Under the pieces are notes generated by a model that worked only from the letters and a program-made list of their open reading frames with translations, did not search any database and had not been told where the DNA came from. From an uncultured bacterium (GTDB lineage Bacteria; Chlamydiota; Chlamydiia; Chlamydiales; SM23-39): 64,000 bases of DNA. Location of the stretch: assembly GCA_964458995.1 (NCBI GenBank), contig CAYWKW010000001.1, positions 3,462 through 67,461 on the forward strand, read 5' to 3'. The position numbers were made by a program, and so were the translations under genes. Positions 6,812 to 38,349 of this stretch are shown in pieces (the first letter of the stretch is position 1; each line of letters opens with the position of its first letter).

Positions 6812-7446
6812 GATTTTAAAAATTCCCTCTTAAGAAGATCCATTTCCACTTCAAACACCTCGGTTTGAAGAGACGTTTCTTGTTTTTTTAACCGAAAATC
6901 TTTGATGAGAATCTGCGGACTATTTGGAGATGGGACATAGGGGCCAACGGGAACATCTTCCAGCAGCGACAAGATTTTTTGCAGATCATTTTCATCCATT
7001 TGAACAGGAGAGCGCTGCTTCTCATCTACCTCTTTGATTTGAGAAGAGTTGTGAATATTTTCCTCAATGAAGGTGAGCCGATTGTCCTCTATGAAAGCCA
7101 ATCTGTCTCTGAATGCTTGATGATTGGGAAAGGCCGGGTGGTAAAGCAAGGCATCCAAATGTTGTTTTTCCTTTTGCAAGAAGGCAAACGCCTCGATTTT
7201 TTGGTCGAGAAAATAGGGGTCAGCCTGAGAATAGCGGTGTAAGAAACGCTCCCTTCTCTCTTTTCTTTCGAAGCTCAGTTTTTCCTTGCGAGCCGCTTTT
7301 GCAAATCGCTGTTGAAGATCTTGAAGCTGGCTATATTCGAGATAGAGAAAAAGAACGGCCCCGAGCAGGGGAAACGCGGCCAAAACAAAAAAGAAGACGG
7401 GTCTCATTCGAGAAAAAAAGAATTTTCCCATTTGTTCAAGGAACAT
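6808..7446 (-). CDS. Hypothetical single-pass membrane protein
   Basis: The 212-aa ORF has one N-terminal TM (VFFFVLAAFPLLGAVLFLYL). It is translationally coupled to both neighbours through 4-nt and 11-nt overlaps. Confidence 0.5.
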   Translation of the reverse strand: MFLEQMGKFFFSRMRPVFFFVLAAFPLLGAVLFLYLEYSQLQDLQQRFAKAARKEKLSFERKERRERFLHRYSQADPYFLDQKIEAFAFLQKEKQHLDALLYHPAFPNHQAFRDRLAFIEDNRLTFIEENIHNSSQIKEVDEKQRSPVQMDENDLQKILSLLEDVPVGPYVPSPNSPQILIKDFRLKKQETSLQTEVFEVEMDLLKREFLKS

Positions 7447-8962
7447 AAGGACTCCGATTTTTTAAGAAAAAAGAAGTTCTATAGCTATCTTGCAAAGCGT
7501 CCCAAGCGATTTCTAAGTTCGGATTGACAAAGCTATCCCCAGAACGGAGCGCTTCATGGAATTTGCGCGCATTCTTGGCGCTTTTAAACCGGAATTCAAG
7601 CTCCACCTTGGCTGAATAGGGTTCTTTGGGAGAATCGATTTTTGGCAAAGTCACTAACTGATACCGGAGTTCTCGAATGTCGATGGGATCTCCCTCTTGT
7701 TTCAATTCAGTGAGAAGTGGATGGGAAGAGATCCAGGAAAAAACTTCAGCCGCTCTAGGCGATTGAAGGATGTAGGGGTATTCTTTGTTATTTTTTTCAA
7801 TGGCTGCAATCCACTCATCGATTTTTGCCTCCACGTCTCCCTCACCGGTCATTTGCAGCGAATGGAGCATCTCCGCTTTTTGGCCATTCGACACCCAAAA
7901 CCCAAATCCCAAAAGAGAGGCAGATAAAAGGAGCGAGGCGCTCAGGATCGACAGAGCAAAAAAGCCAAGGCGTTTCCAATTTTTTCGAGGGAAAAATTCT
8001 TCCTTCAGCAGTTGCAATGGGCGGGATGCCGTTTGCTCTAGAGCAAGACCCAGACTTACGGCAAATTTTTGTTCCTCTAAAGTGAGCGGATGGCCGGAGT
8101 CTTCGAGGAGGAACTCTTTGAGGTGGATAAATGCATCTGTCCTTCCTGTAAAAATCACAGCCCTTTTTTCCCCCCGAGTCATTGAGAAGAGAACTTTGCC
8201 TATAGTTTGCCTAAGTTCATTGAGATTCGAAGTCAAATGGGGGTTCAAGCCCGATTTCAGCAACAGCAAATCGATCTGTTTTGCGGCTCCCTCAATCTCC
8301 TTTTTTAATAGGATCTTCTTTCGGTCGTCAAAAAGAGCAGCTAACAGCGACTCAACGCCTCCTGCAATGCTATGAGCCTTTTTCAATTCTCCCTTTTCCA
8401 TCAAAGCGCAGGTGAATTCGCTCGAACCCAAATGGATTATGAAAGCATCTGAAATGGAGGGAAATTTCCAGCGGACAAAATGGCAAAGTCCCAATGGGAT
8501 TGCGCTCACGCAATCGAGGTCGATCCCCACTTTTTCCAGCTGATCCAGATGACTTCTCAAAGCCTCTCGGGGAACAGTAAACAATAGGGCTTCCGTATTT
8601 CCCTTCTCCTTTTTCTGAAGGAGTGGGACGGTCAGAATGTCGGTCGGATTGAAATGGGTGATTGCTTCAGACTGGAAGCGGAGCGCCTCCTCAACATGGC
8701 TGGCAATCTTCAGCTCCATCGGCCGAATCAAAAAATCTTTTGGCGACAGGCCGCTCGTAATGTAAAGCCGCAATACACAACCCCAAAAATCGAAGCGATT
8801 TTCGGGGACCCCGCTGGTAATGTAAAGCCGCTTTACATTTGGATTGGCCTCCCCGGAAAGCGTCTCGGCCTTGAGCGAAACCACTTCGGTACCTTGACGG
8901 GTTTTCCTTATCAAGGCGCCGTAGATAAAAGGCGGGTCGAGGTGGATTCCTAATATATGCAT
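7436..8962 (-). CDS. Hypothetical bitopic membrane protein with a tentative PilM/GspL-like actin-fold N-domain; carries an in-frame repeat insertion
   Basis: The 508-aa ORF has a cytoplasmic N-domain resembling PilM/GspL (IDLDCVSAIPLGL, IIHLGSSEFTCALMEKGEL, SIAGGVESL). A central TM (LGFFALSILSASLLLSASLLGFGFWV) and a C-terminal domain follow. Family assignment is weak. Confidence 0.55.
   Translation of the reverse strand: MHILGIHLDPPFIYGALIRKTRQGTEVVSLKAETLSGEANPNVKRLYITSGVPENRFDFWGCVLRLYITSGLSPKDFLIRPMELKIASHVEEALRFQSEAITHFNPTDILTVPLLQKKEKGNTEALLFTVPREALRSHLDQLEKVGIDLDCVSAIPLGLCHFVRWKFPSISDAFIIHLGSSEFTCALMEKGELKKAHSIAGGVESLLAALFDDRKKILLKKEIEGAAKQIDLLLLKSGLNPHLTSNLNELRQTIGKVLFSMTRGEKRAVIFTGRTDAFIHLKEFLLEDSGHPLTLEEQKFAVSLGLALEQTASRPLQLLKEEFFPRKNWKRLGFFALSILSASLLLSASLLGFGFWVSNGQKAEMLHSLQMTGEGDVEAKIDEWIAAIEKNNKEYPYILQSPRAAEVFSWISSHPLLTELKQEGDPIDIRELRYQLVTLPKIDSPKEPYSAKVELEFRFKSAKNARKFHEALRSGDSFVNPNLEIAWDALQDSYRTSFFLKNRSPYVP
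8759..8839 (+). repeat. 81-bp copy (1.35 units) of the dispersed 60-bp-period palindromic repeat, inside the CDS 7436-8962
   Basis: Sequence is aatgtaaagccgcaatacacaa-ccccaaaaatcgaagcgattttcgggg-accccgctggt-aatgtaaagccgctttacatt. It aligns unit-for-unit with the array at 37177-37355. Its length is 81 = 27 codons. Confidence 0.85.
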
Positions 8963-13388: not shown

Positions 13389-14882
13389 ATGTCAATTGAT
13401 GCAATCAGCGACTTTGACCCTCTTTCCGAGTGGTTACGAAGCGAAGAGGCGGGCTCTCTGCAAAAGCAACTGGAAGAAAAAATTATTCGACTTCTTTTCA
13501 ACCAGAGCGAGCCCCACTTTTTGCAGATGGCGGCGCAACTCGCCTGGATTGGCGCACGTCCTGAAAACCGGCCTGCGATTCTCAAGGAGGTCATTCAGCT
13601 CTCTCTAGATTCCATCGACCCGTGTAAATGCCGATTTCTGAAGGCGCTAAACAAAGTTGGCCACTTTTTTGTGGAGCACAAAACTGAAATCCTCGTTGGG
13701 ATTGCCGTTGCAGCCACTGGACTCGGCCTAGCTGTTGCAACGGGGTATGCCATCGGTGTAAACGTTTGCGGAGTGGCTGTTGCGGGAGCAGGAGCCGTAA
13801 TCGACCTGAGCAAGGAGGAAAAGCCGCCCATTCCTCCGGTTCCGCCGCTCAGCTCGAAAGCAGAGATCGACCACTATCGGCAAGGCCTGCCCACTTATCA
13901 ACCGCAGCTCAATCTTCCCCCTTCCTCGACAGATCTTTGGGTCACTTCGGAGGGCATTCGGGTCAACGGCCAATTTTATCCAAACGAACTGCTGAACCAA
14001 TCCCACTTTGCCGACACCTACAAAGAGCTTTACCCCACCTTCCCTCCATTGACCGTAACGCCATCGGAACTGCCCTTGAATAATACCACCACCCTTCCCC
14101 CATCGCCATCAACGGAGAAACCCGTTGAAACAAATCCCTTTCCTGCCCCAAATATTCCATCCCATGAAATTCCCCCTGTCATCAGCAGCCGCTACACTCT
14201 TTCAGGCACGAAAAACTTCTCGGGTTACATAGGTTGGATGAATGGGATTAACAACACTTTTGAAGAATCGAAAACCAGCGGCCTATACCTTCAGGGCTTG
14301 GCAGGGGGCCACGCCATTAATGGAATCTACAACTGCTCACATACTCCGCTGGTGGATCTCGTTGAAGCGGGCCTCTTAAATCATCACGGTTCCTCACCCA
14401 TAACGGCGAATCTATTGAGGAAAGAGTGGACTGTTTTCCATGAAACGCACGCAGACAAGCCCAACGACAAGTTGCTCTGGGTTTGCCATAGTCAAGGGGC
14501 GCTTCATGTCAGAAACGCGCTCCTCAATTTGCCTCCCGAAATCCGCAACCGAGTGATTGTGATCGCGATCGCCCCAGCTGCGGTAGTGCCTAAAAGCCTT
14601 TGCTTTAAGTCGTACAATTTCGCAAGTGAAAAAGACATTGTCTACAGGTTCGAACCGGCGCCTCCTTCAGAATGTCGTGTAGTCGATGGTGTAGGAATCC
14701 CTCGAGTAGATCCTCTCCCCGACTATAGGGATGAGCTGATCATTCTACCAGCCCATCCTGGAGCTACAGGCATCGATCATGAATTTCAAAGTCTGACTTA
14801 TCAACCGTCTTTAAATAAGATAATTGACAAGTATTTGAAACAGAATGGAGAATATCTCCCAGAAGATAAAGGAAAAGACTGA
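13389..14882 (+). CDS. Membrane-anchored lipase-like alpha/beta-hydrolase: N-domain, ~38-aa bilobed hydrophobic segment, Pro-rich linker, C-terminal hydrolase-like domain
   Basis: 497 aa. The hydrophobic stretch ILVGIAVAATGLGLAVATGYAIGVNVCGVAVAGAGAVI spans aa 101-138. The Pro-rich linker spans aa 145-265. The C-domain has a nucleophile-elbow-like VCHSQGA (Ser368, nt 14490-14492). Later D (SEKD ~416) and H (GIDHEF 464) fall in Ser-Asp-His order. Family is not recognised. Confidence 0.7.
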   Translation: MSIDAISDFDPLSEWLRSEEAGSLQKQLEEKIIRLLFNQSEPHFLQMAAQLAWIGARPENRPAILKEVIQLSLDSIDPCKCRFLKALNKVGHFFVEHKTEILVGIAVAATGLGLAVATGYAIGVNVCGVAVAGAGAVIDLSKEEKPPIPPVPPLSSKAEIDHYRQGLPTYQPQLNLPPSSTDLWVTSEGIRVNGQFYPNELLNQSHFADTYKELYPTFPPLTVTPSELPLNNTTTLPPSPSTEKPVETNPFPAPNIPSHEIPPVISSRYTLSGTKNFSGYIGWMNGINNTFEESKTSGLYLQGLAGGHAINGIYNCSHTPLVDLVEAGLLNHHGSSPITANLLRKEWTVFHETHADKPNDKLLWVCHSQGALHVRNALLNLPPEIRNRVIVIAIAPAAVVPKSLCFKSYNFASEKDIVYRFEPAPPSECRVVDGVGIPRVDPLPDYRDELIILPAHPGATGIDHEFQSLTYQPSLNKIIDKYLKQNGEYLPEDKGKD

Positions 14883-14884
14883 TA

Positions 14885-15562
14885 ATGAAACCATGGATCT
14901 TTCTCTTGGCGATTTTGATGGCGGCTTGTCATCAATCAGGCATGCTCGATAGAAAAACAGTAGATAAAGAAAAAATCGCTGACATGGTTTTGGGAAAAGT
15001 GGCTTATCAGATGAAACAAGAGGCGAACTTACGTCCTTGTGGAACTATGGGACAAATGATGAATGAAATACAACGCTTGGGATTAGATTTTTTTTATTTC
15101 CAACCTGTAGACATAGTGCAAGGACGTAGATTGGCTGTTCAAGCAGTGGGGGCTATGCTCAACGAAATCAATCAGGAGCCACGCATCCGCCCCTATTTGA
15201 TTCGCTATCCATTTCAACCTCGTAACGTTGAGATTACAATTTTTCTACGCAATCCTGACAATTCTGACCCGCCTCAAGATGCTTTGCAAGTGATTGATGC
15301 CAGTGAAGGGGTGATCCTCTATCAAATACACAATCCTTCTGAAACAGGATACAATTTCGTTACAATCTATAAAGAAACCTATCAAGAAGCTTTAGATAGA
15401 CTGGCCGACCCATCATTGCCTTTGGCTCAATTTGAGCCAGAGCCTGATGAGCTAAGTCCCGAGGAGTGGGCCAGGCTGCGTCGAAATATCGGCTTTGTGT
15501 CCGACGATGGGGCTGTTTACCATCTTGGAGAAGACGGAAAATGGGTAAAAAATTCTCAATAG
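14885..15562 (+). CDS. Lipoprotein, paralog 1 of a 4-member family of unknown function
   Basis: It starts 3 nt after the hydrolase stop (ctgataATG). Lipobox LAILMAAC is present. It shares EANLRPCGTMGQMMNEI, FYFQPVDI, INQEPRIRPYL, IYKETYQEALDRLADPSLPL and EEWARLRRNIGFVSDDGAVYHLGEDGKWVKN with the other copies. Confidence 0.8.
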   Translation: MKPWIFLLAILMAACHQSGMLDRKTVDKEKIADMVLGKVAYQMKQEANLRPCGTMGQMMNEIQRLGLDFFYFQPVDIVQGRRLAVQAVGAMLNEINQEPRIRPYLIRYPFQPRNVEITIFLRNPDNSDPPQDALQVIDASEGVILYQIHNPSETGYNFVTIYKETYQEALDRLADPSLPLAQFEPEPDELSPEEWARLRRNIGFVSDDGAVYHLGEDGKWVKNSQ

Positions 15563-16227
15563 TTTGGATCTTTCTTTTGGCTAGTTTAGTAGTTGGCTGT
15601 AGTCGAACACTCCCCCCAGACCTAAGGATAAGTGAAAAGCAAAAGCTGGCTAATGAAGTCAGAAGAAAAGTTGCAAAACAAATGAAACAAGAGGCGAATT
15701 TACGTCCCTGCGGAACTATGGGGCAAATGATGAACGAGATCGAAGTTTTAGGATTAAGTTTCTTTTACTTTCAGCCTGTAGATATCGCAGAAGGACGTAA
15801 ATTGGCTGTTCAAGCAGTGGAGGCCATGCTCAAGGAAATCAATCAGGAACCACGCATCCGCCCCTATTTGGTTCGCTATCCATTCCAACCTCGTAACGTT
15901 CAGATTACAATCCACTTGCGAAATCCAGACAATTCAGAGCCACCTCAGGAAGCTCTCCAAGTTGTCAGAGCAAGTGAGGGCATGCTTCGTTACAAAATAG
16001 ACGATTCGACGAGAAATGGGTTAATCACAATCTACAAAGAAACGTATCAGGAGGCTTTGGATAGACTGGCAGACCCATCGCTGCCTTTGGTCTCCTTTGA
16101 ACCAGATCGCAAAAAGCTAAGTCCGGAGGAGTGGGCCAGGCTGCGTCGAAATATCGGCTTTGTGTCCGACGATGGGGCTGTTTACCATCTTGGAGAAGAC
16201 GGAAAATGGGTAAAAAATCCTCAATAG
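15541..16227 (+). CDS. Lipoprotein, paralog 2
   Basis: I prefer the start at ATG 15541 (MGKKFSIVWIFLLASLVVGC lipobox). It overlaps the last 22 nt of paralog 1 in another frame. The longer ORF-track start at 15466 would read through the paralog 1 C-terminus out of frame. Confidence 0.8.
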   Translation: MGKKFSIVWIFLLASLVVGCSRTLPPDLRISEKQKLANEVRRKVAKQMKQEANLRPCGTMGQMMNEIEVLGLSFFYFQPVDIAEGRKLAVQAVEAMLKEINQEPRIRPYLVRYPFQPRNVQITIHLRNPDNSEPPQEALQVVRASEGMLRYKIDDSTRNGLITIYKETYQEALDRLADPSLPLVSFEPDRKKLSPEEWARLRRNIGFVSDDGAVYHLGEDGKWVKNPQ

Positions 16228-16892
16228 TTTGGATCTTTCTTTTGGCTAGTTTAGTAGTTGGCTGTAGTCAAACACTTCCTCCGGATGTGAGGGTAAGTGA
16301 AAAACAAAAGTTGGCGAATGAAGTCAGAAGAAAAGTTGCAAGACAAATGAAACAAGAGGCGAATTTACGTCCCTGCGGAACCGTGGGGCAAATGATGAAT
16401 GAGATCGAAGTTTTGGGATTAAGTTTTTTTTACTTCCAGCCTGTTAATATCGCAGAGGGACGAAAATTAGCTATTCAAGCAGTGGAGGCAATGCTTAAAG
16501 AAATCAATCAGGAACCACGCATCCATCCTTATTTGATTTATTATCCTTTTGAACCTCAAAATGTCGAGATTACAATCTTTTTGCGCAACTCGGACAATTC
16601 AGATCTGCCCCAAGACGCTTTGCAGATTATTGTTGCCAGCGAAGGATCTTTACGTTTTAAAATCAACCATCCTGCCAATGGGGGACTTCTGACGATCTAT
16701 AAAGAAACGTATCAGGAGGCTTTGGATAGACTGGCAGATTCATCGCTCCCTTTGGTCCCCTTTGAACCAGATCGCAAAAAGTTAAGTCCGGAAGAATGGG
16801 CCAGGCTGCGTCAAAATATCGGCTTTACATCCGACGACGGGTCTGTTTACCACCTCGGAGAAGATGGGGGTTGGGTAAAAAATCCCCAATAA
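16206..16892 (+). CDS. Lipoprotein, paralog 3
   Basis: The junction architecture matches paralog 2: ATG 16206 lies inside the ...GEDGKWVKNPQ* tail of paralog 2. Lipobox LLASLVVGC is present. This is the most diverged copy. Confidence 0.8.
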   Translation: MGKKSSIVWIFLLASLVVGCSQTLPPDVRVSEKQKLANEVRRKVARQMKQEANLRPCGTVGQMMNEIEVLGLSFFYFQPVNIAEGRKLAIQAVEAMLKEINQEPRIHPYLIYYPFEPQNVEITIFLRNSDNSDLPQDALQIIVASEGSLRFKINHPANGGLLTIYKETYQEALDRLADSSLPLVPFEPDRKKLSPEEWARLRQNIGFTSDDGSVYHLGEDGGWVKNPQ

Positions 16893-16932
16893 TTGGGGTC
16901 TCTTTTTTAAGTGCCTAACATTATACATCCTA

Positions 16933-16956
16933 ACATTATGTTGCAAAACATAATGT
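16933..16956. promoter_or_regulatory. Palindromic putative operator upstream of the ATPase gene
   Basis: acattatgtt-gcaa-aacataatgt is a perfect 10-bp inverted repeat about 35 nt upstream of the ATG at 16991. It is preceded by the direct repeat cctaacattat x2. It is conserved in the relic at 13201-13220. Confidence 0.4.
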
Positions 16957-16990
16957 TTTATTGCATAATAATGGACAGAAGGGAGGCCTT

Positions 16991-18394
16991 ATGAAATTCG
17001 TCAATCGCCATAAAGAGCTGAGACGGCTGGAGCGATTGTTTCGGTCCCGTAAAGCAGGGTTGGCCGTCATTTGGGGCCGGAGGCGCGTAGGTAAGACTCG
17101 CCTTTTGTTAGAGTGGACAGAAAAAAGCAAGGGCGTCTACTTCGTAGCGGATGAATCATCCCCTTCGATACAGAGGAAATTCTTTGCTCTGGCTCTAGAG
17201 CAGGCTTTGCCAAGATTTTCAGATGCAGAATATCCTGATTGGCAATCCTTGTTCATAAGATTGGCCCGCGATGCCCGCCAAGCAAAATGGAGGGGACCTA
17301 TTGTGATTGACGAGCTGCCCTATTTAATTTCTGGGTCCCCGGAACTTTCGAGCATCCTGCAAAAATTTGTCGACCATGAGGCGAAAAAAGCCAACCTTGT
17401 CTTAGTGCTTTGCGGGTCTTCCCGACGGATGATGCAGGGCGCTATTTTAGATGAGTCAGCGCCCCTTTATGGAAGAGCAGATGAACTGATCAAGCTGCAA
17501 CCGATAGCGATTGGTTACATGAAAGAGGCTTTAAAGCTGAAAACTCCAAGGGCTATTGTGGAAGCCTACGCCATTTGGGGGGGAATTCCCCGCTATTGGG
17601 ATTTGGCAAGCAAAGTGGATAGCAATTTGCATGAAACCATCGATCGACTGGTTCTCGATCCGATGAGTCCCTTAAACGAAGAGCCGCAGCGCCTTCTCTA
17701 TGAAGAATCTCCTCCTGCTATCCACCTCAAACCTATTTTGGATGCGATTGGGCTGGGAGCGAATCGTCTCTCCGAGGTAGCGAGCCGTATGGGAGAGCCC
17801 GCCACAGCTCTCGGTCGACCGATTGAGCGATTGATTGAGCTAGATCTCATCCAACGGGAAGTTCCTTATGGAATGGATTTGGAAAACTCCAAAAAAACGC
17901 TCTATAAGATCAAGGACCCCTTCCTCCGGTTTTGGTTCAAGGTGGTTGCTTCCAGACGCAGCCTTTTTTCTCAAGTTTCTCCATCTGTTCGGCATCAATG
18001 GCTCAAGGAGGAGCTCCCTGGTCTATTCGCTACAGCCTGGGAAGAACTTTGCCGTGCCGCCGTCCCCATTCTTTCAGAGGGCTGGGAAGCGATTCACGAG
18101 CCAGCCGGACGCTTTTGGCAAGGACAAGGCCCCGAATGGGACATCCTATCTCAATCTCCCGATGGTCGCTATTTTCTGATTGGTGAAGCAAAGTGGATAG
18201 AGAAAAAGCCATCTGCTCAATGGATACGAAAAACCATTCAAGAGCTGAAAAACAAAGGCATACCTCCCATCAAACGGCATCCTCATGCTCATCTTCACTA
18301 TGTCCTTTTTCTCCCCGAAAAACCCAAACAGCTCTCTCTTCCCCCCGATGTCCGCATCATCGATGCTAAAGCGGTCATCGCTGCCTTGCGCTAA
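16991..18394 (+). CDS. AAA-type ATPase (archaeal-ATPase-like P-loop) with a C-terminal DUF234/PD-(D/E)xK-like domain
   Basis: FVNRHKELRRLERL followed by Walker A GRRRVGKT. Walker B-like VIDELPYL. The C-terminal EWDILSQSPDGRYFLIGEAKW resembles a restriction-endonuclease-like D...E-x-K motif. GGAGG lies just upstream of ATG 16991. Confidence 0.7.
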   Translation: MKFVNRHKELRRLERLFRSRKAGLAVIWGRRRVGKTRLLLEWTEKSKGVYFVADESSPSIQRKFFALALEQALPRFSDAEYPDWQSLFIRLARDARQAKWRGPIVIDELPYLISGSPELSSILQKFVDHEAKKANLVLVLCGSSRRMMQGAILDESAPLYGRADELIKLQPIAIGYMKEALKLKTPRAIVEAYAIWGGIPRYWDLASKVDSNLHETIDRLVLDPMSPLNEEPQRLLYEESPPAIHLKPILDAIGLGANRLSEVASRMGEPATALGRPIERLIELDLIQREVPYGMDLENSKKTLYKIKDPFLRFWFKVVASRRSLFSQVSPSVRHQWLKEELPGLFATAWEELCRAAVPILSEGWEAIHEPAGRFWQGQGPEWDILSQSPDGRYFLIGEAKWIEKKPSAQWIRKTIQELKNKGIPPIKRHPHAHLHYVLFLPEKPKQLSLPPDVRIIDAKAVIAALR

Positions 18395-18404
18395 GAATAA
18401 AATT

Positions 18405-18537
18405 TTTGCTAATCTCCTCGGCTCCTTCATTATCGGCAAGGTCTGCCCACTTATCAATCGTCTTTAAATAAGGTAATTGACAAGTATTTGAAACAGAAAT
18501 GAGAATATCTTCCAAAAGAAAAAGGAAGAAAAAAATA
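18405..18537 (+). pseudogene. Deletion relic of the lipase-like gene (leader, a 30-nt internal piece and the 3' end)
   Basis: tttttgctaatctcctcggctccttc equals the leader at 13349-13375. attatcggcaaggtctgcccacttatcaa equals 13868-13897. tcgtctttaaataaggtaattgacaagtatttgaaacag... equals 14805-14887. The junction falls at the 12-nt direct repeat acttatcaaccg present in the intact gene at ~13886 and ~14793. Confidence 0.85.
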
Positions 18538-19209
18538 ATGAAACTGAGTGTCCTTCTTTTGGCTATTTTGATGATGGCCTGTAGTCAAACACTTCCTCCT
18601 GATTTAAGGGTAAGTGAGAAACAGAAGCTGGCGAATGAAGTCAGAAGAAAAGTTGCAAAACAAATGAAACAAGAGGCGAATTTACGTCCCTGCGGAACTA
18701 TGGGGCAAATGATGAACGAGATCGAAGTTTTAGGATTAAGTTTCTTTTACTTTCAGCCTGTAGATATCGCAGAAGGACGTAAATTGGCTGTTCAAGCAGT
18801 GGAGGCCATGCTCAAGGAAATCAATCAGGAACCACGCATCCGCCCCTATTTGGTTCGCTATCCATTCCAACCTCGTAACGTTCAGATTACAATCCACTTG
18901 CGAAATCCAGACAATTCAGAGCCACCTCAGGAAGCTCTCCAAGTTGTCAGAGCAAGTGAGGGCATGCTTCGTTACAAAATAGACGATTCGACGAGAAATG
19001 GGTTAATCACAATCTACAAAGAAACGTATCAGGAGGCTTTGGATAGACTGGCGGATACATCGCTGCCTTTGGTCCCCTTTGAACCAGATCGCAAAAAGTT
19101 AAGTCCGGAGGAGTGGGCCAGGCTGCGACGAAATATCGGCTTTGTGTCCGACGATGGGTCCATTTACCACCTAGGGGAGAATGGGAGCTGGATAAAAAAT
19201 CCTCAATAG
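18538..19209 (+). CDS. Lipoprotein, paralog 4 (orphan copy behind the hydrolase relic)
   Basis: Start MKLSVLLLAILMMAC (lipobox). The context aaaataATGaaact mirrors the paralog 1 junction. The body is identical to paralog 2 over ~419 nt (18634-19052 = 15652-16070). Confidence 0.8.
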   Translation: MKLSVLLLAILMMACSQTLPPDLRVSEKQKLANEVRRKVAKQMKQEANLRPCGTMGQMMNEIEVLGLSFFYFQPVDIAEGRKLAVQAVEAMLKEINQEPRIRPYLVRYPFQPRNVQITIHLRNPDNSEPPQEALQVVRASEGMLRYKIDDSTRNGLITIYKETYQEALDRLADTSLPLVPFEPDRKKLSPEEWARLRRNIGFVSDDGSIYHLGENGSWIKNPQ

Positions 19210-19221
19210 TGCGGCCCTTTC

Positions 19222-21393
19222 CTACTTTTTTTGGTCAAAGTAGTTATCGATATCCGTGACCTTAAAGTTCTCCCCCTGAAACTCAAACTTTTCTCCAATC
19301 GAGCGCCCCTTCATGGCTTGCGCAAGCTTGGATTGGAAGGAGAGAATGTGCTTCTCAGGATCAGCATCCCAGGGACCAAGGAGGGTGAAACGGAGATGTT
19401 CGCCCTTGGAATCTTGGCAGTGGACAACGGAACCAACCGTTACTTCGTCCGTTGAAACATCTTCCGGTCTTAGGATGCGGGCACGGGCAATCTGATCGGA
19501 AAGAAACTTGAGCTCGGACTGAAGCCGGTCGCGCCGCTCCAGCGCAGCTTTAAATTCGGCGTTTTCACGCAGGTCCCCGAGAGCTCGGGCCGCTTCGATC
19601 TCTTTCGCGTTGTTGACGGTCTCTACGGTGGCTATCTGCTGAATGCGAAATTGAGTCTTTTGATAGCCCTCTTGCGTGGTCCAGATTACGTTCTCCTCTA
19701 GGCCAGAATGATCTTTCTCTTTTCTCAAACGAGTCAAAGAGGGATACACTACTTCCGCAAGTGAATGGAGAATCTTAATATCGTGATCGGTGAGAGAACC
19801 ACATTTGGTTGATAGAAGGAGATATTCTTTGACCTCATCGATGCTCGATTGCTGCATGATATCACGAACAATCTTGTAGCGGTCCGAAGTGAGGAGCGAG
19901 ATGATCTTTTTGGCCAGGTCGCGGTGCTGAGGCTTCTGCTCGACAAAGTCTAAGATGATTAACAGGCCTTCAAAAAACCGGTTTTTCCCCTGAGCGTCAG
20001 AGAAGGGCAGCTTGGACTTTTTATCGATGATTTTTTGGAAATACCAAACAAAAACTTCAGGGAAAGAGAGGGGATGAATGAGGAGAGAATTGAGCTTTTG
20101 TTTCAAAACTTCTTTTGTTTGAGAAGTATCGAGCTCGCCTAAAATAAAGTCCCTCAGAAGGTTCTGATCAACAGTAAAGAGAAGGTCTAAATAGGTCTCT
20201 TGCCAATCCTTACGAAGCTTTTTGACTTGCTGCAAGGTTCTCTTCTGAAACCCCATCACTTCAATCGAGCGGATGACATCGGGAGCCGTCTGTAAATGGG
20301 CGACCATCTCTGAAATCTGATCGTTCACTTTGGCAACGCCAAGATCTTCTAAGAAAAACAAAACTTGAAGTTTCTGGCTGTCAATCAGCTGTTCTTGAGC
20401 CAAGACTTCTTTAAAACGGGCTTCAAGAGAGGTCTTGAATTCGACGTTTTTCAAAGTTTCTGGGAAGTCGCGCAAGAATGCGTAAACCATTTGAATGGTT
20501 GCATTGACGCTGGGTTTGGCTTCCAGAGCTTTATGCAATGCAACTTCGTGAGGAACGTCTTCTAAAAGCAACCGGAATGGATCCTTTAGCTCTTTGGGAC
20601 TTTCAATTTTTGTATCTTTCTTTAACTTCGCACGGGCGGTTTGCCACCAGCGATTCCAATCGTCTGTGGGAATCACGAGATCGCAAAGCTCTTCTTTGAT
20701 TTCAGCCGCCGTTTTGGGCCCTAAATCAGAGAGCATCATGCGGATGACTTCGCTCGGACTTTCTCTGGCTTCTTTCTCCAAAGCATCGGGTTCGCCAAAG
20801 CGGCGAGAATAAAAGTGTTTAGGCGTTAAAGGAATTAGAGTCTTAAAGGCTTTTTCAAAAGAGAAGTGTTGAGGACCGATCACATATTCGAATTCAAGGG
20901 TCAATTCCTCGCGCACCAAAGAAACTTCGATGATTTCTCCCGTGCCCCATCCCCCCGTATGAAATACGTAGTTCCCTTTTTTCATGTGGGTTAGAAGTTC
21001 GAAATTGCGAATCGCCGACTGAAATCTCTCTCGATTGCGAAGACCAATCAGCCGCAGCTTTTCAGATAAAAGAGGATCGGTCCCATTCAGATTTTTTAAG
21101 TATTCGGTGGCCAAGTCCGCTAGCTCTTCACTATTAGACGTCTCTAAATCGAAAACCAAACGCAAGACCCCGTGCGCGAGAGAAAGGTCTTTAAGTTCTC
21201 TCCACAAAGGAAGAATCCGTTCGACATGAACACCAAAAGGTTTTGCTAAATCGGAAGCTTTAACGCTTTCCAAAACAGCGATCATTTCTTCCCCATCAGG
21301 CTGATCGCCGTAGCAATACTCTTCCCAGATCTTTAGGAACCCGGGATAATCATTATTTTGTATTCGATCGCGAAAATCTTTTAAATAAGCCAT
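19222..21393 (-). CDS. greA: Transcription elongation factor GreA, long chlamydial form
   Basis: The C-terminal ~150 aa are canonical GreA (ALGDLRENAEFKAALERRDRLQSELKFL, VTVGSVV, LLGPWDADPEKHILSFQSKLAQAMKG). They follow a ~570-aa N-terminal extension, as in Chlamydiae GreA (~715 aa). Confidence 0.85.
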   Translation of the reverse strand: MAYLKDFRDRIQNNDYPGFLKIWEEYCYGDQPDGEEMIAVLESVKASDLAKPFGVHVERILPLWRELKDLSLAHGVLRLVFDLETSNSEELADLATEYLKNLNGTDPLLSEKLRLIGLRNRERFQSAIRNFELLTHMKKGNYVFHTGGWGTGEIIEVSLVREELTLEFEYVIGPQHFSFEKAFKTLIPLTPKHFYSRRFGEPDALEKEARESPSEVIRMMLSDLGPKTAAEIKEELCDLVIPTDDWNRWWQTARAKLKKDTKIESPKELKDPFRLLLEDVPHEVALHKALEAKPSVNATIQMVYAFLRDFPETLKNVEFKTSLEARFKEVLAQEQLIDSQKLQVLFFLEDLGVAKVNDQISEMVAHLQTAPDVIRSIEVMGFQKRTLQQVKKLRKDWQETYLDLLFTVDQNLLRDFILGELDTSQTKEVLKQKLNSLLIHPLSFPEVFVWYFQKIIDKKSKLPFSDAQGKNRFFEGLLIILDFVEQKPQHRDLAKKIISLLTSDRYKIVRDIMQQSSIDEVKEYLLLSTKCGSLTDHDIKILHSLAEVVYPSLTRLRKEKDHSGLEENVIWTTQEGYQKTQFRIQQIATVETVNNAKEIEAARALGDLRENAEFKAALERRDRLQSELKFLSDQIARARILRPEDVSTDEVTVGSVVHCQDSKGEHLRFTLLGPWDADPEKHILSFQSKLAQAMKGRSIGEKFEFQGENFKVTDIDNYFDQKK

Positions 21394-21562: not shown

Positions 21563-23725
21563 ATGAAGTTTCTGGTCCTCTTTTTTCTTCCCTTAGCCCT
21601 TCTAGCCGAAGATTCTCTTTGCCTTTGCGAATCTCCCGCGGAGCAGCTCTTCCGCGATTTAGAATTGGTTCACGAGATCGACCAAAAAATTCACGACCGG
21701 CTGCCGCTGATTATCAACTATCAGCTGCAGGGCGGCTATTTTACCATGCCCTCCGCACGCAGTTATGATGCGGGCATTTTCGGATTTGGCTTTGCCTACG
21801 TCCCCCCCTATCACCTCTGGAGTTTAGGGTTTCAATTCTTTGATCATATCGAAACCACAGGCAACTACTGGGTCTTTAAGGGGGTTCCCGACGGGATTTT
21901 TGGCCATTTGGGCTTTGGCGATTCGGCAGAAAGGGCTGCCAATATAAAATTTATTCTACTACGCAAGCAAGACGGTTTTCCCCTCATCCCCAATTTTGCT
22001 TTTGGATGGAATGATTTCATGGGGACCTGCCGTTTTCGCTCTTTTTACGTCGCAGCGACGCAAGAGTTCTTGCGCTACAATTTTGAAGCCACGTTTGGGT
22101 GGGGCAATGGCCGCATTCGAGGCTTTTACGGAGGCCTTGCTTGGACCCCGTTTCACAAATTCGACAATGTTTTTTTAAAAAATCTCTCCCTGGTCGCTGA
22201 ATATGACGCCAATGACTATAGGCGCCACATTCATGAGCACGCCAGGGGCCGCCAAGTCAATAGCCGCATCAATGCGGGCCTGCAACTCAAACTTTGGGAT
22301 TTTTTCCGCCTCTCCGCCAGCTCTCTGAGAGGCAACGATTGGGCTGCCAGCGTCGCCATGAATTACAATTTAGGTGCAACCCAAGGAGTATTTGCTAAAA
22401 TCAAGGATCCGGCCCCCTATTGCGCCCCTGTTGACTTGCAGCCCATCGGCCTCATTCGGAGCCGAGAGGAGCTCGCCCAAGAATTCGCCTATGCCCTTCA
22501 AGAGCAGGGGTTTGATCTCTATAGTCTCTATTTTGTCCCTGGCGACTGCGGCGAGGACCATCTCTGGATGAAGGTCGTCAATGTCCGCTATCGGGAAGAA
22601 GAGGAGGTTCGCAGCCGGATTGAATATGTTCTTGCCGCTCTCACTCCTTCCAATATTTCTACCGTCACTGCTGTTACTGAGGCGGAAGGGGTACCCATCC
22701 ATGAATACCGGTTTCGAACTGAAGATCTAAGGCGCTATGCCGCGGGTTGTCTGGGTGAGGATGAGTCTCGCATCATTGCCCCAATCAGAGAAGTATCTTC
22801 AAAGCCCAAAAAATATGAATCGGCTCTCCTCTACCAAAGAAGAAAGCCGATTTGGTTGCTCACGTTTCGACCCTGGTTTCGCTCCTTTCTCGGAAGCAGC
22901 CGCGGAAAATTTAAATATGAAGTGGGTCTTGCTCTCAATCCCGAAGGCTATCTTTTCGACGAGATCTACTACAATCTCTGCGGAACTTATACGATCAAAT
23001 CGAGCGCCTTTGATATTGATAGCAGCGACTTTATCAATCCTTCCCGCATCATCAATGTCCGCACCGACTCGATCCTCTACAATCAGTCCAACTCCTTCCA
23101 TCTCGACCAAGCCTTCCTTCAAAAGAGCTGGAATATGGGGCACGGGTGGTTTTCCCGCCTTGCCCTCGGTTACTTTGAGATGGCTTATGCCGGAGCCGCT
23201 CTCGAGGCGCTCTACTATCCGGTCCATGCCAATTGGGCTATCGGATTTTCCTCAGCTACCCTTCTCAAACGAGGTTATTATGGCGTAGGCTTCCAACACA
23301 AAATCCGCAAACTCACCTCTGAAGGCCCCATCTATCTGCCCTATGTTGGTTTTCAATACTTCGTGGACTTTTATTATCAATACAAACCCTACAGCCTTGA
23401 TTTTAAAATCAGCGCGGGTCAATTCCTAGCCCGCGACAAGGGGATTCGCATTGAAGGGGGGCGCACCTTCTCCAGCGGTCTGCGCGTGGGCCTCTGGTAC
23501 ACCCTCACGAATGCCGAAGATCGCGTCAATGGCGACCGCTACTATGACAAAGGCTTTTCGATCACGTTGCCCCTCGACATATTCCTCAACCATTCAAGCC
23601 GCACCCGCATTGGCTACTCTATGTCAGCTTGGCTTCGCGACTGCGGCGCTTCTTCAGCCACCGGAAGGCCCCTCTACCCAACCCTCTTCTGGGAACGGTA
23701 CAACTCAAAACCGGTTTTCTACTAA
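21563..23725 (+). CDS. yjbH: YjbH-family outer-membrane exopolysaccharide-associated protein
   Basis: It aligns by eye with E. coli YjbH as recalled from memory. GGYFTMPSARSYDAG matches GLLQTPTARMAREG. GAALEALYYPVHANWAIGFS matches GAGAEVLYRPLDSNWAFGLD. SAGQFLARDKG matches SVGQYLAGDKG. ITLPLDIF...SRTRIGYS matches VSVPLDLF...TRSRAAIG. Size is similar (720 vs ~700 aa). Confidence 0.8.
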   Translation: MKFLVLFFLPLALLAEDSLCLCESPAEQLFRDLELVHEIDQKIHDRLPLIINYQLQGGYFTMPSARSYDAGIFGFGFAYVPPYHLWSLGFQFFDHIETTGNYWVFKGVPDGIFGHLGFGDSAERAANIKFILLRKQDGFPLIPNFAFGWNDFMGTCRFRSFYVAATQEFLRYNFEATFGWGNGRIRGFYGGLAWTPFHKFDNVFLKNLSLVAEYDANDYRRHIHEHARGRQVNSRINAGLQLKLWDFFRLSASSLRGNDWAASVAMNYNLGATQGVFAKIKDPAPYCAPVDLQPIGLIRSREELAQEFAYALQEQGFDLYSLYFVPGDCGEDHLWMKVVNVRYREEEEVRSRIEYVLAALTPSNISTVTAVTEAEGVPIHEYRFRTEDLRRYAAGCLGEDESRIIAPIREVSSKPKKYESALLYQRRKPIWLLTFRPWFRSFLGSSRGKFKYEVGLALNPEGYLFDEIYYNLCGTYTIKSSAFDIDSSDFINPSRIINVRTDSILYNQSNSFHLDQAFLQKSWNMGHGWFSRLALGYFEMAYAGAALEALYYPVHANWAIGFSSATLLKRGYYGVGFQHKIRKLTSEGPIYLPYVGFQYFVDFYYQYKPYSLDFKISAGQFLARDKGIRIEGGRTFSSGLRVGLWYTLTNAEDRVNGDRYYDKGFSITLPLDIFLNHSSRTRIGYSMSAWLRDCGASSATGRPLYPTLFWERYNSKPVFY

Positions 23726-24156
23726 TGTAAATTTTTCGGGGATGTAAACGATCCTCGAGCCTTTAGGCAGAGTTGATTCACTCACAACTCTGTGTGAAGG
23801 AAGCCCAATTTGAAACACCAGAGAATAAAAATTTGCCGCAGTTTGGTTATCTCTTCGGAATGAAGAAGAATAATGGCTTAAAACCGCAGAGATAACAAAG
23901 GGATACATAAAGACTCTGCTTTGTCTAAACAGAGAGGCCGCCCCAAATCCGAAGCTAAGAGAAGCAGAGGCAAAAAAACAACTGCCCCATCTTTGCGCCC
24001 CTCTTTTTGCATCCTCATAGCCAAGAATGCAGAGGGCTTGATGAGAATCCAGGGGTTGATAAGTCACCCCTCTGTGTTTTGCATATACAGGACCAGACAT
24101 GGGCGAAAAATATACCCGAAACTGCTTTTTTAGAATAGCTCCGAATGAGAACCTAT

Positions 24157-24214
24157 AATGTAAAGCCGCTTTACATTTGGTCGAGGGGTCCCCGAAAATG
24201 GTTAGGGTCGGGGA
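24157..24214 (-). repeat. Single inverted-orientation copy of the dispersed palindromic repeat
   Basis: Perfect palindrome aatgtaaagc-c-gctttacatt (24157-24177) followed by tggtcgaggggtccccgaaaatgg. This is the reverse complement of the ...ttttcgggg-cccc...ggt-aatgtaaagc unit at 8759 and 37177. Confidence 0.8.
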
Positions 24215-24343
24215 CTCGGACTCGGACTCGGACTCGGACTCGGACTCGGACTCGGGCAAGGGCAAGGGCAAGGGCAAGGGCATGGACTCGGACTCGGACT
24301 CGGACTCGGACTCGGGCATGGGCATGGGCATGGGCATGGACTC
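24212..24343. repeat. Hexanucleotide microsatellite mosaic (22 in-phase hexamers)
   Basis: Counted directly: 7x GGACTC, 4x GGGCAA, 1x GGGCAT, 5x GGACTC, 4x GGGCAT, 1x GGACTC. The run is uninterrupted and all units are in one register. Confidence 0.95.
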
Positions 24344-24379
24344 GGATATGGGAGGACTGCTTTCTGTTTAGATCGGGCG

Positions 24380-25366
24380 CTAGAGTTGGTCCAGGACTTG
24401 TTTGGCGGCGTAGGTAAAGATGAGGTCGGCGCCAGCTCGCTTGATGCTGAGGAGCGTTTCGTAGAAGACCTTGGGCCCGTTGAGCCAGCCCGCTTGATGG
24501 GCAGCCATAACCATGGAGTACTCGCCGCTGACGTGGTAGGCGGCGATGGGGCGCTTGGTTTGGTCGCGCAGCTTGGCGATGATGTCGAGATAGAGGGTGG
24601 CGGGCTTTATCATGAGGATATCGGCGCCCTCTTCCTCATCAAGGGCGGCTTCGAAGAGGGCTTCGCGCCAGTTGGCTGGATCCATTTGGTAGGTCTTCTT
24701 GTCGCCAAAGCCAAGCTTGACTTTGATGGCTTCGCGATAGGGGCCATAGAGCGAGGAGGCATACTTGGCGCTATAAGAGAGAATGCCGACGTTGGTGTGC
24801 CCTTCCTCATCGAGGGCTTCGCGAATGGCGCCTACACGGCCGTCCATCATGTCGCTGGGGGCCACAAAGTCAATGCCCGCTCGAGCTTGCATGAGGGACA
24901 TTTGAATGAGGCAGTCGATGGTTTCGTCATTGAGGATTTCCCCTTTGGAATTGGCGAGGCCGTCATGGCCGTGGGTTGTGAATGGGTCGAGGGCCACGTC
25001 AGCCATAAGGCAGAGGGTGGGAAGGGAAAATTTGAGTTCGCGAATGGCTCGGGCAAGAAGGCCGTCCGAGTTCCACGCTTCAATGGCATCGGGAGTTTTT
25101 AGAGAGGGGTCAAGGACAGGGAAGAGAGCGACCGATTGGATGCCGCGATCGTGGAACTCCTTGGCTTCTTTGACGGCTAGATCGATCGAGAGGCGCTCTA
25201 CTCCCGGCATGCTTTCAATGGGAATGCGCTTTTTTTCCCCTTCAATGAGAAAAAGGGGGTGGACGAGATCGTGGGCTGTGAGATGCGTCTCTTGCACCAT
25301 TCTCCGAATGGCTTCCGATTTGCGATTCCGTCTGAGACGGATGGGAATATTTAAAAGCTGCGTCAT
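24380..25366 (-). CDS. hemB: Porphobilinogen synthase (delta-aminolevulinic acid dehydratase)
   Basis: RLRRNRKSEAIRRMVQETHL, HPLFLIEG, DVALDPFTTHGHDG, APSDMMDGRV, SYSAKYASSLYGPYREA, MIKPA and YHVSGEY are classic HemB motifs, including the Schiff-base Lys context. Confidence 0.9.
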   Translation of the reverse strand: MTQLLNIPIRLRRNRKSEAIRRMVQETHLTAHDLVHPLFLIEGEKKRIPIESMPGVERLSIDLAVKEAKEFHDRGIQSVALFPVLDPSLKTPDAIEAWNSDGLLARAIRELKFSLPTLCLMADVALDPFTTHGHDGLANSKGEILNDETIDCLIQMSLMQARAGIDFVAPSDMMDGRVGAIREALDEEGHTNVGILSYSAKYASSLYGPYREAIKVKLGFGDKKTYQMDPANWREALFEAALDEEEGADILMIKPATLYLDIIAKLRDQTKRPIAAYHVSGEYSMVMAAHQAGWLNGPKVFYETLLSIKRAGADLIFTYAAKQVLDQL

Positions 25367-36969: not shown

Positions 36970-37176
36970 GTAAATTGAATGCAAGGCTTACAAGGGTCAT
37001 ACGCAGTGTTGCATAACCACCTGGAATCAGACAGCTTCCTCTCCTGCCACAAGAAAACGATGTAAAGATATAACGATATGAACGATAGGGATTTATAACT
37101 TTTTTCTCATCGTTTTTATCATTCCATCATTTGATCGTTGATTGTGTCGTGAAAGAAGGATTATGCAACACCCGCA

Positions 37177-37355
37177 CCCCAAAAACCGAGGCGATTTTCG
37201 GGGGCCCCTGGTGAAATGTAAAGCAGCAATACAAAACCCCAAAAACCGAGGCGATTTTCGGGGGCCCCTGGTGAAATGTAAAGCAGCAATACAAAACCCC
37301 AAAAACCGAGGCGATTTTCGGGGGCCCCTGGTGAAATGTAAAGCAGCTTTACATT
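37177..37355 (+). repeat. Tandem array of 3 x 60-bp units of the dispersed palindromic repeat
   Basis: The unit is ccccaaaaaccgaggcgattttcggggg-cccctggtga-aatgtaaagcagcaatacaaaa, starting at 37177, 37237 and 37297 (exact 60-bp period). The last unit ends in the perfect palindrome aatgtaaagc-a-gctttacatt (37335-37355), which overlaps the yvcK stop codon. Confidence 0.95.
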
Positions 37356-38349
37356 AGGTGGAAGCGGCTGCGTACGAGGGTATTGCGTCGAGTTGATCGA
37401 GGATGGCCATCAGTTCTTGGGCCAGCTTTTTGGGATCATGCCGGATCAAATTCCTTTTGAGTAAATCTCGTTTAGACGGTTCTACTATTTTACCCAGTAA
37501 TTCCGCTTCGATGATTCGGGGATCATCCAGGTCATTTTCAACCAAGTCCCCCTCCTCAGAGTAAATCTCTATTAGGTCCTTGGGCGGCTTTTGCACGTTG
37601 ATTAGGATGTGATCGAAAATGTCTTTTCCCAGGTAGCGAACAATCTCTTTTATATAGTGCGATGTCTTAAAGGCAGTGGTTTGCCCCTTCCGGTTCATCA
37701 AATTAATCACAAATACTTTTCGCGCTTTCGCATTGCAAATAGCTTCCCGTATGCCTTCAACAAGCAGGTTGGGGATGAGAGAGGTGTGAAGCCCCCCAGG
37801 ACCGATCACGATGAGATCGGCATTCTCTATTTCTGGTAAGGCTTTTTGATTGACTTTGGGGAAAGGCTCCAGATAGATCGACTTGTATCCTTGATCGATC
37901 TCCTTGGAGAGATAAATTTCTTTTTCCCCTTCCAGAATTTTTTGATTGTTCAGGACCATCTTGAGTCTAACTTGGTGCGTTGTCACAGGAATCACCTTGC
38001 CCTGAATGTAGAGAATCTTGCCCACTTCATCGACGGCTTGTTCAAAACTCCCCGTGATTTTTTCCAAAGCGGAAAGAAAGAGATTTCCCAACGAATGTCC
38101 GCCCAGGCCTCCATTTTCAAAGCGGTAATTCATGAGCGAACGCATCAACCGGCCCGAGTTGGAAAGGGCGACCAGACATTGCCGCACATCTCCAGGCGGC
38201 AAGACACCCAGTTCATCTCGCAGGATTCCCGTGCTGCCCCCGTCGTCCGCCATGGAAACAATCGCTGTCAAATCAACCGGATATTGTTTCAGCCCTTTTA
38301 AGACGACAAAGTTTCCCGTTCCTCCGCCAATGACCACCACTTTTTTCAA
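37354..38349 (-). CDS. yvcK: YvcK/CofD-like gluconeogenesis factor (UPF0052)
   Basis: VVVIGGGTGNFVVLKGLK, AIVSMADDGGSTGILRDELGVLPPGDVRQCLVALS and IVIGPGGLHTSLIPNLLV. Confidence 0.8.
   Translation of the reverse strand: MKKVVVIGGGTGNFVVLKGLKQYPVDLTAIVSMADDGGSTGILRDELGVLPPGDVRQCLVALSNSGRLMRSLMNYRFENGGLGGHSLGNLFLSALEKITGSFEQAVDEVGKILYIQGKVIPVTTHQVRLKMVLNNQKILEGEKEIYLSKEIDQGYKSIYLEPFPKVNQKALPEIENADLIVIGPGGLHTSLIPNLLVEGIREAICNAKARKVFVINLMNRKGQTTAFKTSHYIKEIVRYLGKDIFDHILINVQKPPKDLIEIYSEEGDLVENDLDDPRIIEAELLGKIVEPSKRDLLKRNLIRHDPKKLAQELMAILDQLDAIPSYAAAST

Follow-up and report, generated by a model that had tools for sequence, protein, structure and literature searches.

To our knowledge, palindromic repeats carried in frame within proteins are textbook material only for Rickettsia, with scattered cases of repetitive extragenic palindromes (REPs) besides. 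The Rickettsia palindromic elements (RPEs) were reportedly described by Ogata et al. in 2000. Palindromes also serve as protein-binding sites on chromosomes, as in parS, the Noc-binding sites and the KorB operators, and over-represented motifs such as the uptake signal sequences (USS, or DUS for DNA uptake sequences) and HIP1 are further systems for comparison. RPEs, as well as REPs and bacterial interspersed mosaic elements (BIMEs), including REPs located inside genes, are summarised in PMC3733652. Here we analyse a 64,000-nucleotide stretch (the window) of contig CAYWKW010000001.1 from an uncultured bacterium of the Chlamydiota, in which the 81 bp at positions 8759-8839, reading AATGTAAAGCCGC-AATACACAACCCCAAAAATCGAAGCGATTTTCGGGGACCCCGCTGGT-AATGTAAAGCCGCTTTACATT, lie in frame inside a gene for a 508-residue protein. 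A first-pass annotation of the sequence had taken these 81 bp (27 codons) as one copy of a dispersed palindromic repeat inserted in the manner of an RPE. We consider it probable that they are a composite, made of a palindrome that would be a resident cis-signal of environmental Chlamydiota and of one 60-nt satellite unit. The parts of the literature that we searched held no description of this palindrome motif or of RPE-like elements in Chlamydiae.

The 81-bp segment, its host gene and its sister copies

The segment codes for residues 42-68 of the host protein (NVKRLYI followed by TSGVPENRFDFWGCVLRLYI) in open reading frame (ORF) 7436..8962 on the minus strand and, exactly as first annotated, introduces neither a stop codon nor a frameshift; TSGVPENRFDFWGCVLR is the peptide stretch across the insert of the 508-aa protein. 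The features at this site and at its two sister sites in the window are as follows.

7436..8962, minus strand: host gene, 508 aa, whose N-terminal domain has a PilM/GspL-like actin fold and which also has a membrane helix and a C-terminal domain
8819..8839, no strand assigned: resident 21-bp perfect palindrome AATGTAAAGCCGCTTTACATT, codons 42-48 (NVKRLYI), present in nearly all orthologues
8759..8818, minus strand: inserted 60-nt satellite unit, codons 49-68 (TSGVPENRFDFWGCVLRLYI), absent from most orthologues
8781..8807, minus strand: 12-bp unit hairpin CCCCGAAAATCG-CTT-CGATTTTTGGGG followed by TTGTGTATTG, terminator-like in the sense orientation of the gene according to a terminator scan
8840..8868, plus strand: partial unit, decayed and oppositely oriented, that flanks the palindrome on its other side, codons 32-41 (AETLSGEANP)
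24157..24201, no strand assigned: solo palindrome (24157-24177) with ~20 nt of an inverted partial unit (GGGGTCCCCGAAAAT), pair I2
37165..37355, plus strand: intergenic tandem array of ~3 identical 60-nt units ending in a perfect palindrome (37335-37355)

Searching the window for the 15-nt half-site GTAATGTAAAGCCGC with up to 2 mismatches gave 7 matches (0.07 expected), while the 21-nt palindrome AATGTAAAGCNGCTTTACATT, allowed up to 3 mismatches, was matched 3 times and always perfectly (8819, 24157 and 37335; expected 0.00), with no degenerate copy within 3 mismatches in the window. The core TGTAAA-N5-TTTACA with up to 1 mismatch recovered the identical three sites (0.09 expected). Read on the plus strand, the unit is composed, in order, of a half-site copy whose right arm is altered (AATGTAAAGCCGC-AATACA), the hairpin and the linker GCTGGT. 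It is 79-86% identical to the tandem units at 37215-37334 (family D6) in the array at 37165-37334, where Tandem Repeats Finder reported a period of 60 with 2.9 copies and matches of 100% (37176-37347). A covariance model built on palindrome plus unit scored 100.6 bits at 8759-8839 and 102.9 bits for the 37-kb array, and the decayed upstream unit forms an inverted-repeat pair (I1, 8818-8868 versus 37306-37356). Folding of 8740-8860 on the minus strand yielded one long composite hairpin (-52.9 kcal/mol, z = -4.6); for palindrome plus unit the z-score of the composite hairpin was -4.6 on one strand and -3.9 on the other, and the solo palindrome folds with only -5.6 kcal/mol. The 12-bp stem of the unit is kept with changed bases across genomes (TCG/CGA, TG/CA, CG/CG, CCG/CGG) and is predicted on the minus strand to match the intrinsic-terminator consensus (12 pairs, 6 of them GC, then TTGTGTATTG or TTTTGTATTG), as is each unit of the 37-kb array. 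One strand has A·C mismatches in the stem where the other has G·U, and it is the G·U strand that scores as terminator-like.

The first-pass annotation had called the two sister copies intergenic, which holds for 37165-37355, located between the convergent uvrB and CofD/YvcK-like genes with the stop codon of the latter (37354..38349, minus strand) abutting the 37335 palindrome, whereas 24157, downstream of hemB and between convergent genes, falls in a low-complexity 210-aa ORF of doubtful reality. This ORF (23705-24337, minus strand; MPMPMP/ESESES) is probably not a gene and holds runs of the hexanucleotides GGACTC, GGGCAA and GGGCAT (24200-24352) directly beside the palindrome. Just upstream of the 60-nt array, the 8-nt repeat AACGATAT is present in 3.9 copies at 37056-37087. 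In another genome (L004, 2010-2111) tandem 70-nt repeats join a tRNA 3'-end-like segment (GGTTCGACTCC...) to the unit hairpin GGGGCCCCCAAAAACG...CGTTTTTGGGG, and this hairpin module is therefore also found away from the palindrome.

The host ORF is a real, conserved gene: we found 138 homologues, all from chlamydial-type metagenome-assembled genomes (MAGs) and metagenomes and the best of them 83% identical, and an AlphaFold2 model built on 54 sequences reached a mean predicted local distance difference test score (pLDDT) of 86. Pfam and NCBIfam gave no match for the protein; Foldseek searches with the model retrieved PilM (5eou_B, E=6e-15), FtsA and the cytoplasmic domain of EpsL/GspL (1yf5, E=1e-8). 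The gene is the first of a conserved cluster with 212-aa, 423-aa and MTHFS genes, and these neighbours are retained at every related locus looked at (L154-L158). Residues 39-63 have a pLDDT below 50 and lie between strands β3 (25-34) and β4 (66-72), so that the model places the inserted unit in a predicted disordered loop, in keeping with the surface-loop position first proposed, and the duplicated half-site LRLYI-TSG is modelled as strand β4. Only 3 of the 6 frames are open in each window copy, and the NVKxLYI frame stays open across the unit whichever way the unit is oriented. The gene could survive the insertion as the unit is 60 nt (20 codons) long with this frame open either way, and as the extra 20 residues would fall in a disordered loop while the duplicated half-site would recreate β4. 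When the unit's translations from every open frame were joined into one peptide query, no protein matched at E<=0.01, the peptides being too short.

Ancestry of the palindrome and turnover of the unit

The consensus of the palindrome, AATGTAAAG-CNG-CTTTACATT, reads N-V-K-(P/R/Q/L)-L-Y-I on either strand, AAT GTA AAG CNG CTT TAC ATT being a perfect palindrome that yields NVKxLYI from both. Nearly all of 60 aligned orthologues carry NVKxLYI, with or without extra residues, and the variable x is Q, P, R or L, exactly the residues of the four CNG codons. To keep retrieval blind to the motif, 43 orthologous metagenome loci were fetched via peptide patterns elsewhere in the protein. The core ATGTAAA(G/A)CNGCTTTACA is retained in the DNA even at 34-50% protein identity, and L138 and L139 still have the palindrome core at 34-35%. 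Across 24 genes retrieved in this way, only 3 of 118 conserved degenerate columns use a single codon throughout, namely V43 (GTA), L46 (CTT) and Y47 (TAC), each in 23/23 genes against gene-wide usages of 0.20, 0.23 and 0.45, and the joint log10 probability of the motif codons is -41 with the genes treated as independent. Because nearly all orthologues, down to ~35% identity, carry the palindrome with conserved codons, it appears to predate the insertion, and the invariance of synonymous codons at the motif therefore points to a constraint on nucleotides and not on the peptide. We regard both propositions, ancestry of the palindrome and nucleotide-level constraint, as well supported by the comparison of orthologues. 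The palindrome would have occupied the 5' portion of this PilM/GspL-like gene ever since its family diverged, and the upkeep of the palindrome would lie with selection or a homogenising drive on the nucleotides, not on the NVKxLYI peptide.

The unit behaves differently from the palindrome. Orthologues had been expected to lack all 27 codons; most do lack the 60-nt unit, but the NVKRLYI palindrome is found in nearly all of them, such that only 60 bp (20 codons) of the 81 bp originally counted as inserted qualify, the remaining 21 bp being ancestral to the gene. In the closest relative (L154, 83% amino-acid identity) the palindrome is accompanied by a unit minus its 30-nt hairpin, and L155 (71%) has no downstream unit and a partial one upstream of the palindrome in the opposite orientation, which the covariance model recognises as a unit fragment (44.9 bits, E=4e-8). 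Upstream units are also present in L111 (one), L156 (two) and L157 (one and a partial one) and read NVKPQYTTPK...GGPxx before NVKxLYI, and the downstream unit of the window and of L158 is the reverse complement and reads ...PENR.F.WG..LRLY; the units of L111, L156, L157, L158 and the window are all 60 nt long. Other lineages have gained 1-3 units at the palindrome of this gene in either orientation. At least 8 extra residues are present at the site in 26 of 93 orthologues, and a neighbour-joining tree requires at least 13 state changes, a rough count that includes at least one mis-scored sequence (P0107).

These comparisons lend good support to a 60-nt satellite unit that attaches to the palindrome, with independent gains and losses in both orientations, and loop tolerance in the protein is well supported too. 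The random landing implied by the RPE model did not hold up, as one palindrome appears to have gained units repeatedly, in different lineages, upstream as well as downstream and in opposite orientations. The layout of the unit would be L-c-R' (the AATACA variant), hairpin and linker, followed by the intact L-c-R palindrome; units would attach only to such palindromes, and may lie on either side in either orientation because the palindromic site is symmetric. From this anatomy we infer that units may be gained, multiplied and lost by recombination or slippage between the 13-nt half-site repeats at the palindrome, or alternatively gained by integration at its centre. No consistent target-site duplication was detected, linker and distal flank agreeing at only 2-9 of 14 positions. 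Derivation of the unit from the downstream sequence of the host gene itself was rejected (alignment z-score 1.7, not significant).

The palindrome family in Chlamydiota and phages

Among species-representative genome contigs, at least 110 stretches contain the 21-mer without any mismatch, compared with ~0.5 expected by calculation (figures for genome contigs refer throughout to the matches listed). All but one 3-kb contig belong to chlamydial-type MAGs, and the carriers include Parachlamydiales, a Simkaniaceae member, a Waddliaceae member and some Verrucomicrobia-labelled MAGs. With the covariance model, the full palindrome plus unit was detected at only 12 loci, with partial units in L154 and L155, and the remaining sites are solo palindromes without a trace of the unit; the unit, including the AATACA arm and the CCCCAAAAA...TTTTCGGGG hairpin, stands beside palindromes at other places in L009, L021, L027, L036 and L053. 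The 21-mer recurs unchanged between genes, in a second reading frame (CKAALH) and within unrelated proteins: 46 of the 115 sites listed (~40%) are inside called genes in the NVKxLYI or CKAALH frame, the third frame containing TAA, and most intergenic sites are located within 25 nt of a gene 3' end (14 convergent, 28 tandem and 7 divergent). About 30 gene ends use or abut the TAA of the palindrome (frame ATG TAA), for example at 4705 in L079 and at 4904 in L095, and one such gene, presumably GroEL-like, has a GGM-repeat C-terminus. In convergent pairs of L054, L081 and L095 both genes stop inside one palindrome. Several sites apparently occupy the same position in different genomes, as in the window, L045 and L100, where the palindrome is hemB-adjacent, adjoining the hemB 3' end in L045 also and following a YjbH-family gene in L100.

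Pfam searches confirmed as hosts PolA (in the inter-domain linker), RecB/AddA-like, RecD-like, PBP2, PutA, glycogen phosphorylase (GlgP), GspD secretin, M24 peptidase and aldehyde dehydrogenase genes, and the RecD-like gene of L036 carries a 57-nt unit in frame. In adenylosuccinate synthetase (PurA), NVKRLYI aligns gap-free with VRERLLL of PDB 3hid (another PDB homologue needs a single-residue gap), and in phosphoketolase NVKLLYI aligns gap-free with DLNLIYV of a PDB phosphoketolase. The palindrome therefore appears to have been written over homologous codons in these genes, where it has replaced residues and added no length, unlike what an insertion would do. Such an overlay is what site selection or a conversion-type drive would predict, and not what RPE- or MITE-type insertion would (MITE stands for miniature inverted-repeat transposable element). 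An origin in sequencing adaptors was discarded, since the motif sits in frame in protein families of many independent assemblies and aligns gap-free with PDB homologues.

The boundary of the 21-mer is sharp at 21 bp, with invariant arms (all 18 arm positions fixed), a free central base and flanks that weakly favour T at +1 and G at +2 and that showed no covariation and, among 226 flanks scanned, no -10 box. A promoter with TTTACA as -35 element was rejected, as the scanner pairs TTTACA with GAAAAT inside units and finds no -10 signal in the 226 flanks, and so was a hairpin extending past the 21-mer, flank complementarity being no higher than in shuffles. Iteron-like clusters of half-sites were likewise dismissed, the extra half-sites near palindromes being units, except in L037. 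This 3-kb, Algoriphagus-labelled contig (2470-2560), the only match listed that is not chlamydial-type, has 3 extra TGTAAAG/CTTTACA half-sites within 75 nt of the palindrome in an operator- or iteron-like arrangement. No Rfam family matched the whole window at gathering thresholds or the 37-kb array at E<=1, and blastn with the array found no match among PLSDB plasmids or INPHARED phages.

The exact 21-mer is also present in 22 viral contig stretches (IMG/VR, L159-L180; well under 1 expected by calculation). These contigs are genuine tailed phages, with terminase genes, P22-like and other portal proteins and tail sheath genes, and most of their palindromes lie between genes, as in L168, where the sheath and tube genes flank the copy. 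Two contigs have two copies each. Terminase searches with these phages matched only unassigned environmental contigs of phage size (~35-40 kb).

GC skew in the window is negative to the left of ~24 kb and positive to the right of ~30 kb, with the change of sign near hemB (24380-25366). PMC3932018 places oriC next to hemB in Chlamydia pecorum. Together, the skew switch near hemB and this precedent suggest that the replication origin region may be covered by the window and surrounded by its palindromes at 8.8, 24.2 and 37.3 kb. Palindrome sites of other genomes show an enrichment for synteny with the 64-kb window (about 10 of 112 by our count), all 9 matches of MAG SSF52 are located in two adjoining contig regions, and no clustering of DnaA boxes was found in the window. 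Elsewhere in the window, repeats of ~665 nt (D1/D2; 14867-19308) extend over ORFs of ~225-253 aa (14885-16892) with a further copy near 18499-19209, and two adjacent paralogues of ~847 aa (29587-34670) are 78-86% identical over 2.5 kb, the first with a match to an inverse-autotransporter β-domain.

Competing explanations and relation to known systems

In the composite reading, the palindrome (core TGTAAA-N5-TTTACA) would act in cis as a nucleic-acid signal in environmental Chlamydiota, with sister copies that are intergenic, mostly at gene 3' ends, or that lie over homologous codons in many housekeeping genes. Its putative reader is most likely, as we infer from sequence features, a dimeric sequence-specific protein on double-stranded DNA, which we favour since the arms are invariant, the central base is free, the boundary is sharp, the hairpin is weak and the motif overlies coding sequence. 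A broader proposal, to which we give somewhat less than an even chance, is that of an undescribed palindromic cis-element across environmental Chlamydiota with a dedicated conserved reader, maintained in coding DNA by selection or drive, possibly concentrated at the origin and shared by tailed phages, with the units as satellites on a symmetric attachment site; the symmetry of such a site would account for in-frame gains in either orientation at the same codon. Several points weigh against the composite reading and its DNA-binding reader. No palindrome-binding protein, recombinase or transposase was identified, tblastn with approximate Y1 transposase and ParB queries in a very small sample (1.2 Mb) gave no significant matches, and the best match to an approximate IS200 TnpA query was an ORF that we read as a nucleotide-transporter-like membrane protein. 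The 21-mer counts on genome contigs are lower bounds, the codon statistics assume independent lineages and are inflated by phylogenetic inertia, and the agreement of linker and distal flank at so few positions is no guide to the route of unit gain. Moreover, many intergenic copies are within 25 nt of a gene 3' end, ~30 genes end at the palindrome TAA, and the unit is terminator-like in one orientation with A·C or G·U mismatches depending on the strand, and a hairpin role in RNA or single-stranded DNA thus fits this location and this unit at least as well as a double-stranded site does.

The 3'-end bias, the terminator-like unit and the intergenic phage copies make such a role a serious rival, which we judge possible, though clearly less probable than the composite reading. 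The palindrome would then act, in the manner of a REP, as a hairpin for 3'-end formation, processing or termination, and the unit would be a module for intrinsic termination; with the same limited likelihood, the intragenic copy would be a conserved internal attenuator or processing site. This rival departs from the composite reading only in the level at which the signal is read. The clustering of intergenic copies at gene 3' ends and between convergent genes agrees with this, as do the stop codons in or next to the palindrome, the intergenic phage copies, such as the one between tail sheath and tail tube genes, and a 12-bp unit stem, 6 of its pairs GC, that on one strand has a T-rich tail and mismatches turned into G·U, and PMC3733652 documents REPs inside replication and repair genes. 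The solo hairpin, however, is weak (-5.6 kcal/mol) and without a U-tract, its stems never covary, all 18 arm positions being fixed with no extra flank pairing, ~40% of the copies listed are deep inside genes, no Rfam family matched, and we saw neither the GTAG/CGTC tag nor a REP-associated tyrosine transposase (RAYT; 1.2 Mb, approximate query).

An RPE-type event, in which a mobile 81-bp palindromic element was transposed into an uninterrupted gene and tolerated as extra peptide, strikes us as unlikely. What survives of the original comparison is that a repeat-encoded peptide sits in frame in a loop of a real, conserved gene, that most orthologues lack this segment, that palindrome and unit fold as one long imperfect hairpin as RPEs or MITEs do and that related copies exist outside conserved genes; what does not is that the whole 81 bp came as one insertion. 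Of these, 21 bp are ancestral and codon-conserved in unit-free orthologues, units were gained independently at one site on both sides and in both orientations, most family members listed are solo 21-mers without a unit trace, the palindrome adds no length in PurA and phosphoketolase, and neither a target-site duplication nor, by tblastn in 1.2 Mb, a transposase was seen. A purely local tandem duplication (a coding minisatellite) unrelated to the dispersed family would account for 0 to ~3 copies between orthologues and for the identity of the three 37-kb units, but is refuted by the dispersed copies, in which the unit with its AATACA arm and hairpin stands beside palindromes at unrelated loci and in other genomes, and we give it very little credence. 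Even less plausible is that NVKxLYI is functional as a peptide and that its likeness to intergenic DNA arises incidentally from constraint on the protein. The protein family does conserve the motif, and LYI is able to form a β-strand, yet the synonymous codons of the motif are invariant, x is restricted to the four CNG codons, and identical 21-mers are intergenic, in the CKAALH frame and in unrelated proteins.

RPE-like behaviour is hereby extended to another obligate intracellular phylum, with the difference that the repeat grows from a fixed, conserved palindrome, and the 0-3 units that occur in both orientations at a single protein position form a natural series that should be useful for learning how proteins absorb repeat-encoded peptides. 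The palindrome family is the more novel lead than the in-frame unit. A 21-bp motif that stays letter-perfect over deep divergence in PolA, RecB-like, PurA, phosphoketolase, secretin and further genes implies an undescribed sequence-reading machine in environmental chlamydiae, which could serve chromosome organisation or segregation, recombination, or RNA 3'-end formation. As far as we know, Chlamydiae are without several canonical cell-cycle systems. For annotation, the motif matters in that it supplies stop codons and creates spurious ORFs.

Set against known systems, the palindrome shares with USS/DUS and HIP1 an over-represented exact motif that is tolerated in particular reading frames inside genes, that arises in place and not by insertion, and that provides inverted pairs at gene ends, whereas its neighbouring copies are 4-90 kb apart on the contigs sampled instead of ~1 kb, its half-sites occur only within palindromes or units and are not over-represented singly, and there is almost no cloud of degenerate copies (none in the window). 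With MITEs such as Correia/NEMIS and ERIC, palindrome plus unit has in common perfect 13-nt terminal inverted repeats and a long hairpin, but we found no target-site duplication and no matching insertion sequence (IS) element, and growth proceeds by head-to-tail 60-nt units. The E. coli TyrR box is TGTAAA-N6-TTTACA. The core TGTAAA-N5-TTTACA resembles it, and two Trp/Tyr permease genes (27179-29584) are located 3-5 kb from the 24157 site; the likeness is probably a coincidence.

Like REPs and BIMEs, the palindrome is short (21 nt; REP range 20-40 nt) and present in many copies (at least 110 stretches), prefers gene 3' ends and convergent pairs where it supplies stop codons, forms mosaic arrays with other motifs and occurs inside replication and repair genes. 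It differs from them as a perfect 21-mer with no GTAG/CGTC tag (AATGTAAAG... has GTAA, not GTAG), with no RAYT found in the 1.2 Mb searched with an approximate query, with ~40% of the copies listed inside genes, and with copies that are positionally conserved over deep divergence and written over homologous codons. The parS, Noc-binding and KorB sites resemble it as perfect palindromes in tens of copies, often in coding sequence and conserved at the nucleotide level, with one sequence phylum-wide and a possible clustering round the replication origin region; the palindrome is unrelated to canonical parS (TGTTNCACGTGAAACA), which has no match within 3 mismatches in the window, and neither a 3'-end bias nor satellite units are parS features.

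The likeness to RPEs, finally, is one of description: a dispersed palindromic repeat that occurs between genes as well as in frame within genes (the PilM/GspL-like gene and the RecD-like gene of L036), with the encoded segment in a loop of an otherwise intact protein. Yet the element as a whole fails as an insertion, only the 60-nt unit being inserted here; this unit is shorter than the ~100-150 nt of RPEs and belongs to a different phylum, and it attaches not to arbitrary sites but to a pre-existing conserved 21-bp palindrome, with recurrent gains at one codon position in both orientations and with growth into tandem arrays.

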